Virus record (IMG/VR): IMGVR_UViG_2690315994_000021
Length of the DNA stretch: 4,458 nt
Source: a virus
Taxonomy: Duplodnaviria > Heunggongvirae > Uroviricota > Caudoviricetes
Direction: 5' to 3' (one strand)
Under the pieces are notes generated by a model. The model was not told the origin of the DNA, made no database searches, and saw only the letters and a program-made list of their open reading frames with translations. Shown piece after piece: positions 1 to 4,458 of the stretch. How positions within the stretch are numbered: the stretch's first letter is position 1; every line of letters begins with the position of its first letter. The translations under genes were made by a program, and so were the position numbers.

Positions 1-68
1 GCGATCTGCTGGTAGTGACGCGCCCAGCTCTGAGCCTCAAGACGATCCTGAATGTAATAAGCGTTCAT
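1..68 (-). CDS. Hypothetical prophage early-region protein, 5' end only (gene continues beyond the left edge)
   Basis: Minus-strand ATG at 68-66 opens a frame that stays open to position 1 ([23 protein letters not shown]...). AGGAG (plus 76-80 as ctcct) lies 7 nt upstream of the ATG. Same orientation as the upstream minus gene, consistent with a leftward operon. The N-terminus looks familiar from E. coli prophage small proteins, but I cannot name it reliably. Confidence 0.55.
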
Positions 69-143: not shown

Positions 144-434
144 TTAGTGATTCAGGCCGTTACCGCGTCCGTCGAGAAAAACTTCCACGAGCAAATCACG
201 GGTATAAGTGCGCTCGATGCCGCGATGCAGATATAGCCGTCCGCGTAAATTAGCTGATGCAGTCCAGGTACCATCTTTGTGTTTGACCAGCATTCCTGGC
301 ATGACCGCACCGCGATTAACGGTCTGCGTTCCGTAATGTTGATGAACCATAAAAACTCCTGCCCGTAAGCTGGGCTGCTGAACATATATAGACTTCTGCG
401 CGTATTCAGGCGGTGGATGGCCGCCGGTTGTCAT
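144..434 (-). CDS. Hypothetical small prophage protein, first gene downstream of the leftward promoter (start uncertain: TTG 554, ATG 434 or ATG 350)
   Basis: The track ORF 144..554 starts at a TTG with no SD, and its first 40 codons are rich in rare Arg/Gly codons (AGG, CGG, CGA, GGA, GGG). ATG at 434 has GAGG about 10 nt upstream. ATG at 350 has a strong AGGAG 5 nt upstream. Stop is TAA at 146-144. The body has ordinary codon usage at about 50 percent GC. No family assigned. Confidence 0.5.
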
Positions 435-617
435 AACTAAGCCGCCTCGTTGAAGCGACTGAGGTATGAAGTGTTGAGTTGATTTCAGCTGGTCACACCG
501 ACGTTCACGCGTCCGTTTCACCCCTCGCACTCCCCGGAGCCTGCCGAAATTCAAGCTGCGGATCTAAGCGGTCATCGCAACGGTGAAGTTATAAATTTTG
601 TGATACCAACATCGATG

Positions 618-671
618 CAATAGCATGACAATAGCAATGGCTATTGGTGTGGTCAATAGCAATTGGTATTG
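618..671 (-). promoter_or_regulatory. Left operator-like cluster with embedded leftward sigma70-like promoter (pL/oL analogue)
   Basis: Heptamer CAATAGC at 618-624, 629-635 and 654-660; inverse GCTATTG at 640-646; GGTATTG at 665-671. These form an 18-bp palindrome CAATAGCAATGGCTATTG (629-646) and an imperfect copy (654-671). On the minus strand, TTGACC (plus 651-656) - 17 bp - TATTGT (plus 628-633) gives a promoter firing leftward from about 620. The same heptamer recurs in the cI-cro intergenic region. Confidence 0.45.
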
Positions 672-938: not shown

Positions 939-1877
939 TTAATTTATCTTTTCAACATTTCCATGAATCAACAAGTCGTAGGCAAGAAATAGTTTCCTAT
1001 ACTGGGTTTTTAAATTGTCAACGTCGCATGTCTTGAATTGAACAAACGCTTCTTTTTTAACATAATCTTCAATCTCCTCTTTGGGGATATTTTTTATGTT
1101 CTTAATGACTATAGACAATTCTTTGTACTTTTTGAACGTTGCATCCTTTATATCTTTGATGTTGGTGTAAATTTTATTTGCATTGATTTTATCTAAGGTG
1201 ATTTTATTGAGCAAGTCGTCTAGTTTTCCGTGGCGTTCAATGCGTTGATTTAGTTTTAACACATATTTAGCTGGCAAACTTAACTCTTTCAAATTACATG
1301 AGGTTATAGTTTTTGAAAATGGAAGTTGTAATGAGTTTACTGAGCCTAATATGAAATCTATGGCTAATTTATTAGATATTTCATTTTTATTAAATAAGTA
1401 ATCTTCAAGATAATTTATTTCTTTAACTTGTGTGAATACATACTTTTTATCGCCTAGAGCAACAACTAAATTTTTTCCTTGTTTAACACTTTCTTCAAGT
1501 CTGTCTAAGTCAGAAGGTGAAACCAATAGAGTATCTAAGTGCCCTTTTTCACCCTCATTAATGATAAGTGTTTTGATGGCTCTTTGATACCTTAAAACAT
1601 CATAAGGTGAGAGCCCTTCATCAACAGCACTGATCTCATCATAGATCTGTTTATAGTTATCTGTTTTAACAGATGTATATGTAATTTGTAGCTGTTGATC
1701 GGTAATCTGTTTTGGTACTACTTCCTGTTCATTCTCTTTATATTCAATCAAAATTATTCTTTCAGCTGATTTTCGACCATCTTCTCTAGGTAGTTGTGAG
1801 GAAAAATCAGAAAGAAGTTTCTTTACATTCCTGTCAGTTAAAGAATATCCAAGAAAAACTATTGGATTTTTAATCAT
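939..1877 (-). CDS. SIR2-family protein, 3' portion: longest start-codon-initiated segment of a longer disrupted gene (frame stays open upstream to 2132)
   Basis: The 312-aa track ORF starts MIKNPIVFLGYSLTDR, which looks like an internal SIR2-like strand and not an N-terminus. Translating the same frame upstream of the ATG gives, with no stop until 2135-2133, ...NINKKAKIIITTNYDAFIKNLL...WSELYKIHGDIKDPH...: a TTNYD motif (2102-2088) and an HG motif (H at 1979-1977). This matches the sirtuin TQNID and catalytic HG motifs. There is no ATG, GTG or TTG in frame between 2132 and 1877, so the track boundary is an artefact of start-codon searching. Confidence 0.75.
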   Translation of the reverse strand: MIKNPIVFLGYSLTDRNVKKLLSDFSSQLPREDGRKSAERIILIEYKENEQEVVPKQITDQQLQITYTSVKTDNYKQIYDEISAVDEGLSPYDVLRYQRAIKTLIINEGEKGHLDTLLVSPSDLDRLEESVKQGKNLVVALGDKKYVFTQVKEINYLEDYLFNKNEISNKLAIDFILGSVNSLQLPFSKTITSCNLKELSLPAKYVLKLNQRIERHGKLDDLLNKITLDKINANKIYTNIKDIKDATFKKYKELSIVIKNIKNIPKEEIEDYVKKEAFVQFKTCDVDNLKTQYRKLFLAYDLLIHGNVEKIN

Positions 1878-2525
1878 GTTAGATAGTATCTTGGCACTAA
1901 TGAGTATAGATTTGTTGTCATATTTTTCGTAATCATCTTTATTTATGATTATTGAGTGTGGATCCTTTATATCACCATGGATTTTGTATAACTCACTCCA
2001 TCCAATAGTATCTTCGAAAAAACCATTATTTCCAATATAGAGTTTTGGAGTTACATTTTGCTCTTGAAGTAAATTTTTTATGAAAGCATCATAATTTGTA
2101 GTGATGATTATCTTGGCCTTTTTATTAATGTTTTAAATGATGCTAATTCATCAAGATTTACATCCTTTCTGATTGTGTTATTAGAAAATCTTTGGCATAT
2201 AGCGTATTTAAATGGTGAAATATCTTCACTAAAAACCCTCTTGGCATCTAGTCCATTTAATTTTAATTTGCCAGTCCTAAACAATAGATTGTAATCATTT
2301 TCAATTTTACTTGCTGCCTCTGTATAAATCTTATGATCGATATCATTATCACTGTTATTTTTATGTGATTCTTTTATTGTTAAAAGATAACTATAGAAAT
2401 CATTTGTGGGATTTGTTATTTTCCAATACTCGTTTAATAGCTCTTCCCACGTTGGGTAGTTCTCTAAATATCTTTTTGAAATGCCTGAGCCAATAAAGAC
2501 TATTGGGTAATTTTTGAATTCAAAA

Positions 2526-2535
2526 TTTTTTTTTT
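2526..2535 (-). repeat. A10 (plus-strand T10) homopolymer spanning codons 3-5 of the SIR2-like gene; frameshift or slippage site
   Basis: Ten consecutive T at plus 2526-2535, read directly. On the coding strand it gives ATG TCA AAA AAA AAA TTT TGA. A 9-A version reads straight into the SIR2 N-terminal domain. Confidence 0.9.
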
Positions 2536-2582
2536 GACATATCCATATACCTTAAGCTCTGCTTGAAACATCCATTCTATAA

Positions 2583-2652: not shown

Positions 2653-3345
2653 CTACCCATGTTTTCTATATGTCTGTGGCATGCTCCCAATAACTTTCCC
2701 AAATATAAATACCCGATTCATTTCGTCTTTTTCGATCGGGTCCCATGGTGAGTAGCTCTTGTTATCAGAGATAACCAGCAGCTTATCCTTCATCATTTGC
2801 AGGCGCTTTACATGGGCTGTGTCGTCGTACAGAAACGCATAGATACCATCACCGTCGAAAGATTTAACAGTGATATCAACGAACAGAAGATCACCTGGTT
2901 CGATCGTTCCTGACATGCTGTCACCGCGTACGTTAATGATGCGGATATTTTCTGCCTTCCTGCCATCGAACATGTGACGAGCATCGTCAAACGAGTACTC
3001 AACCGAGCGTAGGACTTCTACAAACTCACGGTTGATGACACCCGGCCCAGCACTGACTTCTATATCAAGAACGTCAATCTTGAAGTATTTGGAATGGTTG
3101 ACAGCAGGCTTCCCTGATTGTTGACCGTCATTTCTCATCGGGCCTATGCCTGATGAGAGCCACTCTGTTCGAACACCCAATGCATTAGCTATTTCAACAA
3201 TTTTTGTTGAGCCGCGTGCGTTGCCGCTTGTCAGTCTCCAGATTGTGGGTTGAGCTACGCCAGACGCCTTTGCAAGAGCGCCTTGAGACATTCCAGATTG
3301 TTCCATCGCTAGGTTTAAGCGATCAGCAAGAGTTTCTTTTTTCAT
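2653..3345 (-). CDS. CI-like prophage repressor: N-terminal XRE-type HTH plus C-terminal LexA/S24 autopeptidase domain
   Basis: The track ORF 2653..3381 starts at a TTG; the likely true start is ATG 3345 (MKKETLADRLNLAMEQSGMSQGALAKASGVAQPTIWRL...), giving 230 aa. The HTH is in the N-terminus. The C-terminal part has VRGDSMSGTIEPGDLLFVD (Ser nucleophile) and HVKRL (Lys), matching the LexA/UmuD/lambda CI Ser-Lys dyad pattern, with a candidate Ala-Gly cleavage site in EVSAGPG. It is divergent from a Cro-like gene. Confidence 0.85.
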   Translation of the reverse strand: MKKETLADRLNLAMEQSGMSQGALAKASGVAQPTIWRLTSGNARGSTKIVEIANALGVRTEWLSSGIGPMRNDGQQSGKPAVNHSKYFKIDVLDIEVSAGPGVINREFVEVLRSVEYSFDDARHMFDGRKAENIRIINVRGDSMSGTIEPGDLLFVDITVKSFDGDGIYAFLYDDTAHVKRLQMMKDKLLVISDNKSYSPWDPIEKDEMNRVFIFGKVIGSMPQTYRKHG

Positions 3346-3354
3346 AAGTTTTAA

Positions 3355-3447
3355 TTTATACGCTTGCGTATTGATGGTCAAAACACGTTTTGCTATTGAT
3401 TGGATTAATACGCATTGCTATTATCCATTCATTGTAATACCAATAGG
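3355..3447. promoter_or_regulatory. Right operator/promoter region: back-to-back divergent promoters for cI (leftward) and cro (rightward) with operator-like heptamers
   Basis: Rightward: TTGATT (3396-3401) - 17 bp - TATTAT (3419-3424), then AGGA (3445-3448) 7 nt before the cro ATG at 3456. Leftward (minus): TTGACC (plus 3376-3381) - 15 bp - TATAAA (plus 3355-3360), ending about 7-10 nt before the cI ATG at 3345, implying a leaderless or near-leaderless cI mRNA as for lambda pRM. Operator-like heptamers: GCTATTG 3392-3398, GCTATTA 3417-3423, CAATAGG 3441-3447. Confidence 0.45.
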
Positions 3448-3455
3448 AATTGATA

Positions 3456-3683
3456 ATGACAAATCAAACCATTCAACTCGCAATCAGTATTACAGGTAGT
3501 CAAAAACGACTGGCAGATCTATGCGGTGTAGCCCAGCCCACTGTTTGGCGTTGGCTACACGGTGGCGGAATTGATGCCCGCTATGTAATGAAAATTGTCT
3601 CAGCCACTGGTGGAAAGATTAAACCAGCAGATATTCGTCCCGACCTTGCACCATTGTTTAACGCGAGTAATTCTGCCGCCTAA
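3456..3683 (+). CDS. Cro-like HTH regulator (YdaS-like family)
   Basis: The track ORF starts at TTG 3450, but ATG 3456 has AGGA at the right spacing. Protein MTNQTIQLAISITGSQKRLADLCGVAQPTVWRWLHGGG...TGGKIKPADIRPDL matches, from memory, the YdaS/Cro-like pattern (ITGSQ, HTH, TGG, DLRPD). It is divergent from the repressor. Stop is TAA at 3681-3683. Confidence 0.8.
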   Translation: MTNQTIQLAISITGSQKRLADLCGVAQPTVWRWLHGGGIDARYVMKIVSATGGKIKPADIRPDLAPLFNASNSAA

Positions 3684-3707: not shown

Positions 3708-4253
3708 ATGACTATGCAACCACTTACATACCAACAGACTAGCGGATTTAGCCCGACTGCGGTGATAAATCGTTCTCAAACAAAACAGGCGCCAGGCCAC
3801 GAAAAAATCCGTGATGCCGTTCGCGCTTGGTCGGCTGCAGATAATCAGGATGTTGTTGCCGCACTCATTGTGAATGAGTATCGGGAGCAGGGCGGCGGCA
3901 CCATCGATTTCCCTGATGATGTCAGCCGTGCACGCCAGAAGCTGTTCCGTTTCCTCGATAACAAATTCGATTCTGAAAAATACCGAAATAACGTGCGTGA
4001 ACTGACCCCGGCAATTCTGGCGGTACTACCGCTGGAATATCGCGGCCACCTGGTTGAGCAGGATAGCTTCATGGCTCGGTTGGCTGAAATGGATAAGGAA
4101 CTCAGTGAGGCAAAGCAGGCGGTCATTCTCAACGCACCACGCCACCAGAAACTGAAGGAAATGAGTGAAGGTATTGTGTCGATGTTTCGTGTGGACCCGG
4201 ATCTGGCTGGTCCATTAATGGCGATGGTTACCACCATGCTGGGGGCAATATGA
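3708..4253 (+). CDS. CII-position regulatory protein, YdaT-like family
   Basis: 181-aa ORF directly after cro (AAGG upstream; alternative ATG at 3714). Motifs EYREQGGG and LTPAILAVLPLEYRGHL resemble what I recall of E. coli Rac YdaT-family proteins. Family assignment is from memory and not verified. Confidence 0.7.
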   Translation: MTMQPLTYQQTSGFSPTAVINRSQTKQAPGHEKIRDAVRAWSAADNQDVVAALIVNEYREQGGGTIDFPDDVSRARQKLFRFLDNKFDSEKYRNNVRELTPAILAVLPLEYRGHLVEQDSFMARLAEMDKELSEAKQAVILNAPRHQKLKEMSEGIVSMFRVDPDLAGPLMAMVTTMLGAI

Positions 4254-4420
4254 CAGGTTCAGAAATGGCGAAAGCCGGTCTGCGGGAACAGAGCCGACTT
4301 TCAGGTGCAAATCGTAACGCACTCATTGCGGAAGGAATTATGGCAAACACTGTGAACCGCCCCGGTTTTCCTGGAGAGTGTTTTATCTGTGAACTCAGGC
4401 TGCCAGATCATCGTTTCTGA
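4250..4420 (+). CDS. Small hypothetical ORF (56 aa), translationally coupled to the upstream gene
   Basis: Its ATG (4250-4252) overlaps the upstream TGA stop (4251-4253) in an ATGA arrangement. Protein MTGSEMAKAGLREQSRLSGANRNALIAEGIMANTVNRPGFPGECFICELRLPDHRF contains a CxxC. It is below the ORF-track size cutoff and I recognise no homology. Confidence 0.3.
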   Translation: MTGSEMAKAGLREQSRLSGANRNALIAEGIMANTVNRPGFPGECFICELRLPDHRF

Positions 4421-4458
4421 TGGAAGCATAATAAGCTTTTTCTGCTTCTGCCGGAGGG

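Follow-up and report, generated by a model that had tools for sequence, protein, structure and literature searches.

The CAATAGC/GCTATTG repeats at the two control regions of this prophage DNA very probably mark operators, oL and oR, on which the prophage's own CI repressor and Cro protein would act in a lambda-style switch. As read from sequence comparison, the operator unit is a dyad of 16-18 bp, Y-AATA-SS-nATn-SS-TATT-R, and CAATAGC is one spelling of its half-site. The window, by which we mean the whole stretch of 4458 bases that was analysed, comes from a lambdoid prophage of E. coli (O55:H7/O157:H7 lineage) and represents its immunity region. A prophage segment in E. coli O55:H7 DEC5E matches it at 99.9% identity, and close copies (at least 80% of the window covered) were found in 166 of 5426 complete E. 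coli genomes. The gene order is as follows.

1-68, minus strand: gam, N-terminal end
144-350, minus strand: kil
about 350-620, minus strand: pL leader, untranslated
618-671: oL, the first control region
939-2540, minus strand: SIR2-like cargo gene, PADLOC candidate PDC-S25, a pseudogene in the window
2653-3345, minus strand: cI repressor gene, 230 aa
3346-3455: oR, the second control region
3456-3683, plus strand: cro-like gene, 75 aa, Pfam YdaS_toxin/HTH, helix AQPTVWR
3708-4253, plus strand: YdaT-like gene in the cII position
from 4250, plus strand: start of replication gene O

The end of an IS3-family (IS629-like) element at 4356-4458 cuts gene O about 105 bp in, so this prophage copy is probably replication-defective. 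Eight coliphages (4A7, 4C10, 1W, 3W, Perceval, PhiR30_1, PhiR68_2 and PhiR70_1) are about 97% identical to the window on both flanks and differ from it in the DNA between the flanks. The CI protein carries an N-terminal HTH_3 domain and a C-terminal Peptidase_S24 domain (Pfam), and its recognition helix reads AQPTIWR. The alignment of CI proteins shows no variation at Ala99-Gly100, Ser143 or Lys180, and the nearest solved structure by sequence to the N-terminal domain is that of the 434 repressor (E = 1.6e-5). The cro-like ORF is divergent from cI, begins 110 bp from the cI start, and matches YdaS/HTH/P22_Cro. In E. coli O157:H7 MB41-1 (locus L048, 3655-3877) the cro-like gene is annotated as frameshifted, with a 5-bp deletion corresponding to window positions 3530-3534; cI and the boxes are intact there.

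Exact copies of the heptamer lie at 618, 629, 640 (minus strand), 654 and 3392 (minus strand) and nowhere else in the window, as a sequence-only reading of this DNA had reported. Five copies compare with 0.78 expected, and none of 200 dinucleotide shuffles reached five. The density within 618-660 is 93 per kb, against 0.145 per kb in a background of some 290 kb, taken from related prophages and their flanks, from which operator zones were excluded. The one-mismatch near-copies at 665-671, 3417-3423 and 3441-3447 are present as described. When one mismatch is allowed, however, the copies in the window rise to 25, where 14.7 would be expected, and this number was reached by 3 of 200 shuffles; this enrichment is weak, and the near-copies therefore carry no weight by themselves. 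Near-copies had been placed over the cro promoter, and they do exist, but the one at 3441-3447 falls downstream of the predicted -10 and is unconserved in relatives. The 18 bp at 629-646 (CAATAGCAATGGCTATTG), called a perfect palindrome in that reading, are in fact self-complementary at 16 of 18 positions: two perfect 7-bp arms enclose a centre, AATG, that is not palindromic.

The view that both control regions share a motif was borne out, but the unit of that motif is the dyad of 16-18 bp and not the heptamer. The full dyad pattern matches the window 3 times, with 0.26 matches expected. Repeat finding placed 18-mers at a distance of 25 bp in oL (629-646 and 654-671), and a 25-bp register linked 3354-3372, 3381-3397 and 3404-3422 in oR. 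A degenerate 16-mer, AATA-SS-N4-SS-TATT, at a threshold of at least 11 of 12, matched the window at 630, 655, 3357, 3382, 3407 and 3436 only, indicating that oR has three boxes. The third of these, at 3356-3373, and the 25-bp register of all the boxes were absent from the earlier reading. The boxes, with their scores, and the promoter-like sites returned by a promoter scan are listed here.

629-646: oL box 1, CAATAGC-AATG-GCTATTG, covers the pL spacer and -10, 20.6 bits
654-671: oL box 2, CAATAGC-AATT-GGTATTG, covers the pL -35 and the DNA just upstream, 19.7 bits
3356-3373: oR3-like box, TTATACG-CTTG-CGTATTG, covers the pRM spacer and -10, 20.5 bits
3381-3398: oR2-like box, AAACACG-TTTT-GCTATTG, abuts the pRM -35 and overlaps the pR -35 by 3 bp, 15.8 bits
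3406-3423: oR1-like box, TAATACG-CATT-GCTATTA, covers the pR spacer and -10, 20.8 bits, conserved
628-656, minus strand: pL-like promoter, TTGACC-17-TATTGT, with TG extension
3353-3381, minus strand: pRM-like promoter, TTGACC-17-TAAATT
3396-3424, plus strand: pR-like promoter, TTGATT-17-TATTAT, with TG extension

Both at oL and at oR the centres of adjacent boxes are separated by 25 bp, and oL has two good boxes rather than three. The oR3-like box is near-invariant among 20 distinct relatives; the oR2-like box is conserved and is a weaker match, its left arm AAACACG being off consensus. As to which heptamers are parts of operators, those at 629, 640, 654 and 3392 sit inside boxes, as the earlier reading would have them, whereas those at 618-624 and 3441-3447 found no support as operators.

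The boxes overlap three promoter-like sites that were found independently. The leftward TTGACC-17-TATTGT promoter noted earlier was recovered by the scan (656-628, with the TG extension), and the oL of phage 4A7 holds a TTGATA-17-TATTAT promoter-like site arranged in the same way as pL of the window. The -10 hexamers of pR and pL consist of the box arm TATT followed by AT (pR) or GT (pL). The GGTCAA hexamer of pRM is conserved in relatives. Since the predicted pRM start lies at or next to the cI ATG, with no visible SD, the cI mRNA is likely to be leaderless. Single-base differences between the window and related E. coli prophages in oL fall at 639 (box centre), 651 (pL -35) and 665 (an S position of box 2); at 651 the -35 is TTGACC in the window and TTGACT in 4 of 4 relatives.

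We surveyed the distribution of the boxes with the CI N-terminal domain, which was searched against one genome per species and gave 38 loci. Their hosts are Kluyvera, Citrobacter, Enterobacter, Yokenella, Pluralibacter, Raoultella, Dryocola, Siccibacter, Buttiauxella, Proteus, Providencia, Morganella, Serratia and others, and about 30 prophages from more than 12 enterobacterial genera have the CI helix AQPTIWR in common. In these prophages the three oR boxes stay at constant distances from the start of cI although the spacers have diverged, and each prophage has a box cluster of its own 0.9-3.2 kb downstream of cI. Across the 30 loci analysed (268.6 kb), 76 matches of the degenerate box fell at -77, -52 and -27 relative to the cI ATG, inside the 130-bp stretch that precedes the gene, and 68 fell in clusters 0.86-3.2 kb downstream of cI. 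Elsewhere in these loci there were 19 matches, and the reversed-sequence control gave 12. Among 20 distinct oR sequences, minority bases per column numbered 0.40 in the boxes against 5.61 outside boxes and hexamers. The symmetrised consensus is Y-AATA-SS-n-A-T-n-SS-TATT-R, in which the central AT (83%) and the outer Y/R (88%) stand outside the rule by which boxes were selected. Most AQPTIWR loci among the 38 have boxes at threshold, the exceptions being L037, which is sub-threshold at oR, and L035, which has none; loci with ISQPAIQK, VSQPAIAK or AQPTIWK are without boxes. One locus (L020, JBKEAL010000003.1, 1652 bp) with an enterobacterial cI-oR-oL arrangement and all boxes comes from a Parachlamydiaceae MAG bin and is probably mis-binned.

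The box-scoring rule was derived from the window itself and is circular to that extent. A matrix trained only on non-E. coli oR boxes at fixed offsets from cI avoids this circularity, and the two oL 18-mers of the window were among its four best matches. In 500 first-order randomisations the maximum was 16.9 bits and the 95% point 13.6.

We then compared the repressors and boxes of individual phages, which were intermediates from a protein search of phage genomes.

4A7, Salmonella Salfasec13b and Klebsiella ST11-VIM1phi8.2: CI AQPTIWR, Cro AQPTVWR, the window's three oR boxes
PhiR5_1 and PhiR47_2: CI SQAAIQK, Cro SQQAVYK, boxes ACAACC/GGTTGT
HK639: CI SQPAIQK, Cro SQPAVHK, boxes ATAACC-N2-GGTTAT

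In the three phages of the first line the oR boxes are nearly letter-identical and the spacers differ; each has 2-4 boxes in an oL of its own, with different sequences. PhiR5_1 and PhiR47_2 carry a CI whose C-terminal domain is near-identical to that of the window and whose N-terminal domain differs, as does their Cro. Neither has any of the dyad boxes; the heptamer does not occur in PhiR47_2 and occurs in PhiR5_1 as one stray copy that lies in neither control region. By this natural swap of domains the boxes are linked to the DNA-binding domains of CI and Cro.

The search was also run from the DNA side. Among 2.9 million viral contigs, 42 were found to carry two perfect degenerate boxes at a distance of 25 bp. 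The AQPTIWR/AQPTVWR pair was encoded 1-3 kb away in 12 of them. In 19 others, repressors of the SQPSVWK or AQPSVWK type and Cro proteins with K/RQP(S/T)VWA directly flank the boxes; one has the Cro-type helix RQPTVWA alone, five have TQPT(I/V)HR or AQATIHR helices, and in five no helix was found. The helix regular expression had no match in a reversed-sequence control of 833,386 residues. Because this expression was widened after examples had been seen, only the 12 contigs with the original helices are a clean prediction, and the rest are a lead. Taken together, the domain-swap phages, HK639, the 38 loci and the DNA-first scan show that the operator sequence co-varies with the CI/Cro DNA-binding domain. 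The earlier proposal of one repressor acting at oL and oR, with the SIR2-like gene between them, is supported in substance by independent comparative evidence.

It is improbable that the heptamer itself is the unit, with single or directly repeated CAATAGC recognised wherever it stands, including 618-624 and 3441-3447. The copies at 618 and 629 do form a direct repeat with a period of 11 bp, one helical turn, which would suit such a unit. Yet 4A7, Salfasec13b and ST11-VIM1phi8.2 lack the 618 copy in their oL, the bases conserved near 3441-3447 are not that near-copy but AATAC at 3436-3440, and every conserved site is a dyad with an nATn centre. The inverted heptamers at 640-660 were listed, on both strands, by a terminator scan, and might be taken for an RNA or DNA hairpin acting as a terminator or attenuator. 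The stem is short, however, with 3 G-C pairs only, and its place, within the -35/-10 region of pL, is upstream of the point where the transcript is predicted to begin. The repeats can pair simply because two dyad boxes lie next to each other, and the oR boxes form no such hairpin. We regard this explanation as the least credible of those weighed here.

The binder might instead be another protein, for instance the homologue of cII (YdaT-like), a host factor or the replication protein O, or the boxes might be conserved merely as promoter hexamers. The intergenic DNA is A+T-rich and promoter-dense, and the right arm with 1-2 further bases makes up the -10 of pR (TATTAT) and of pL (TATTGT); because the A+T-rich boxes partly coincide with these hexamers, some of the conservation could reflect promoter function. 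Conservation extends well past the hexamers, however, to both arms and the nATn centre, and the oR3 box and the left arms coincide with no -10. The cII and O DNA of PhiR5_1 and PhiR47_2 is about 96% identical to that of the window, yet these phages have different boxes and none of the dyad boxes, and across genera the boxes follow the recognition helix of CI and Cro; the domain swap thus speaks against binding by cII, O or a host factor. We give these alternatives only a small chance, and take the boxes as putative CI/Cro operators in what follows.

Two further sites contain or adjoin heptamer copies.

618-624, plus strand: lone heptamer where pL is predicted to start, repeating the left arm of box 1 in direct orientation at a distance of 11 bp
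3435-3452: candidate weak fourth box, TAATACC-AATA-GGAATTG (TAATACCAATAGGAATTG), between the pR start and the cro start codon

A third oL box at 618-635 was rejected, since this register is self-complementary at 0 of 18 positions and has no matrix score. The 618-624 copy may be a weak added contact at the pL start, or a relic. The register 3441-3458, which contains the near-copy 3441-3447, was rejected as well: it scores 9.4 bits, is unconserved, and straddles the centre of the better register 3435-3452. The latter scores 14.4 bits, above the 95% null point of 13.6, and its right arm is the cro SD. Its left arm, (A/T)ATAC, is kept in all relatives, including those of Proteus and Providencia, and the SD is conserved too. 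The site could be a weak fourth operator or an element of the cro leader. If it is a fourth box, the cro leader and SD would come under a further control that lambda does not have.

The contigs from the DNA-first scan also provide hints that an AATA-SS half-site code is common to at least three separate repressor/Cro groups from different phage lineages, namely those with AQPTIWR, those with SQPSVWK and K/RQPxVWA, and those with TQPT(I/V)HR. The contigs L052, L053 and L055, 17 other viral contigs, and L050, L059, L073, L078 and L086 have the same box pairs at the 25-bp spacing, with helices of the SQPSVWK and K/RQPxVWA kind or of the TQPT(I/V)HR kind. If the code is true, specificity between the groups would be set by the centre and flanks of the box and not by its arms. 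Together with the possible conserved fourth box at 3435-3452, it is put forward only tentatively, as a possible recognition code in which the AATA-SS half-site is read by a Q-P-(T/S)-(I/V)-(W/H) helix.

In the switch that we propose, dimers of CI, which has a 434-like HTH with helix AQPTIWR, would bind the three oR boxes and also the two oL boxes, over the pL -10 and the pL -35. With box centres 25 bp apart, the dimers could bind cooperatively in pairs by way of their C-terminal domains, as those of lambda do. CI on these sites would silence pL and pR, and would probably activate and then repress pRM. Cro, with helix AQPTVWR, is expected on the same boxes, and RecA-stimulated self-cleavage of CI at Ala99-Gly100 would lift the repression. 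The SIR2-like gene is presumably co-transcribed from pRM in lysogens, like lambda rexAB or bstA of BTP1. The 112 bp between cI and the SIR2-like gene hold no predicted terminator-like site, and just past the SIR2-like stop codon (918-933) stands a G+C hairpin with a run of T, terminator-like as scored on the plus strand, which makes co-transcription of cI and the SIR2-like gene from pRM a reasonable reading.

The SIR2-like gene matches the PDC-S25 profile in two fragments, at positions 5-145 (E = 1.7e-58) and 227-526 (E = 6.8e-122), and matches Pfam SIR2_2 weakly. Its reading frame is broken in the window by two homopolymer frameshifts. The first is T10 in place of T9 at 2526-2535 (codons 3-5), which puts the ATG out of frame and is also present in DEC5E; the second is T5 in place of T6 near 2119 (2119-2123), for which the window stands alone among the four relatives compared. 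Strains A35, MB41-1 and NCTC9699 have an intact allele of 533 aa. The frameshifts reflect either genuine decay or sequencing errors in homopolymers. In the intact allele the start codon is followed directly by an A9 run, long enough for frequent slippage, and this poly-A tract could be an on/off switch or a sequencing artefact. We found no functional report on PDC-S25 in the literature; the sole paper naming it does so in passing.

Among the relatives, the distance from cI to oL ranges from 0.86 to 3.2 kb, and the cargo genes differ. The slot holds HipA_2 with DUF3037, DUF6414, a SocA/Panacea-domain protein, a ParA-like ATPase, lipoproteins, or ASCH-domain and GevT/GevA genes, or it is empty. 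The interval between cI and N is a known mosaic hotspot, occupied by rexAB in lambda and by bstA in BTP1 (PMC8585504).

On the other side of oL, no gene for an N-like antiterminator was found between pL and kil in the window. The 270-nt pL leader (350-620, minus strand) is conserved in 4A7, PhiR5_1 and PhiR47_2, phages of other immunity types. As a candidate put-like RNA it aligns patchily with putL of HK639, and its fold is no better than that of shuffled sequences (z = -0.99); an Rfam scan of the window gave no match at E <= 1. To the right of oL, an element at 696-724 (TGATAnnnAAATGAATTTaTTTTT) is also found in HK639, Salfasec13b and ST11-VIM1phi8.2, though their operators differ, its copies including those at about 6500-6530 of L008 and about 6225-6255 of L005. 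In HK639 and Salfasec13b it lies just upstream of a small rightward ORF and is promoter-like (TTGATA-18-TATAAA in Salfasec13b), whereas in the window the spacer is shorter and no rightward ORF adjoins it. A tblastn search of the window found no homologue of the small rightward ORFs at oL of HK639, Salfasec13b and ST11-VIM1phi8.2. A short sequence, ATTGATAAT, occurs three times (668-676, 696-704 and 3449-3457; 0.15 expected, 0 of 200 shuffles), twice beside oL and once across the cro start codon. An exact 11-mer, TATTGGTGTGG, is found at 642-652 and again at 739-749, 97 bp apart, the second copy beginning with CTTATTG, a near-copy of the box arm.

The arrangement is that of lambda. Both have an HTH repressor with an S24 autopeptidase domain and a divergent cro, three boxes between cI and cro (over the pR -10, abutting the pRM -35 and over pRM), and a second cluster over pL, which in the window is 2.8 kb away. 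The lambda boxes are spaced 23-24 bp apart, and those of the window 25 bp. The window differs from lambda in that the operator sequence is unrelated, the unit is 18 bp instead of 17 bp, and oL has two good boxes. Its Cro is an HTH of the YdaS type, the gene in the cII position is YdaT-like, there is possibly an extra weak box over the cro leader, and the pL operon has no N gene within the window. Both have a cargo slot between cI and oL, which in lambda holds rexAB (PMC8585504).

The 434 operators are 14 bp (ACAA-N6-TTGT), in contrast to the 18-bp unit with AATA-SS arms described here, and the recognition helices differ. The P22 c2 operator is likewise of 18 bp, with 7-bp arms and a 4-bp centre that is not contacted, in which it is like the boxes of the window; its arms, however, read ATTTAAG, and its recognition helix is different. 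HK639, an HK022-like phage with RNA-based antitermination, has the same order of cI, a 75-aa cro and a 181-aa YdaT-like cII. Its CI is 46% identical to that of the window in the alignment and 45.2% by tblastn, with helix SQPAIQK and 14-bp boxes, ATAACC-N2-GGTTAT. It has annotated pL, pR and a putL-like RNA, and it is with the region of this putL that the pL leader of the window aligns patchily.

The closest repressors are found in P22-like phages of Salmonella. In residues 1-74, the N-terminal part of CI from ST104, BTP1, SE1 and ST160 is 87.8% identical to that of the window, and the same value holds for Salfasec13b, which shares the helix AQPTIWR and the three oR boxes. BTP1 has its defence gene bstA in the slot downstream of cI, where the window has the SIR2-like gene (PMC8585504). 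The ST104-type phages differ from the window in their virion and replication modules, in having an N-like antiterminator, and in the details of their oL boxes. The ST104 repressor was described as a separate, unstudied specificity by Villafane et al. 2008 (PMC2629481). Our literature search found no description of operators for the immunity of ST104/BTP1 type and no binding, footprint or reporter results for an AQPTIWR-type repressor, and a full-text search for the heptamer together with operator or repressor returned unrelated papers only. The operator map thus appears to be new for a kind of system that is known, and since the arrangement is that of textbook lambda, the result is unsurprising and is of use for annotation and for choosing experiments.

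These data yield an operator map, with a consensus, that can be put to the test; the immunity type concerned is widespread among prophages of Enterobacterales and includes ST104, BTP1 and coliphage 4A7. They also document a variable cargo slot within the immunity region, which holds a SIR2-like candidate defence gene in the window and HipA-like kinases, a Panacea-domain protein and others in its relatives.
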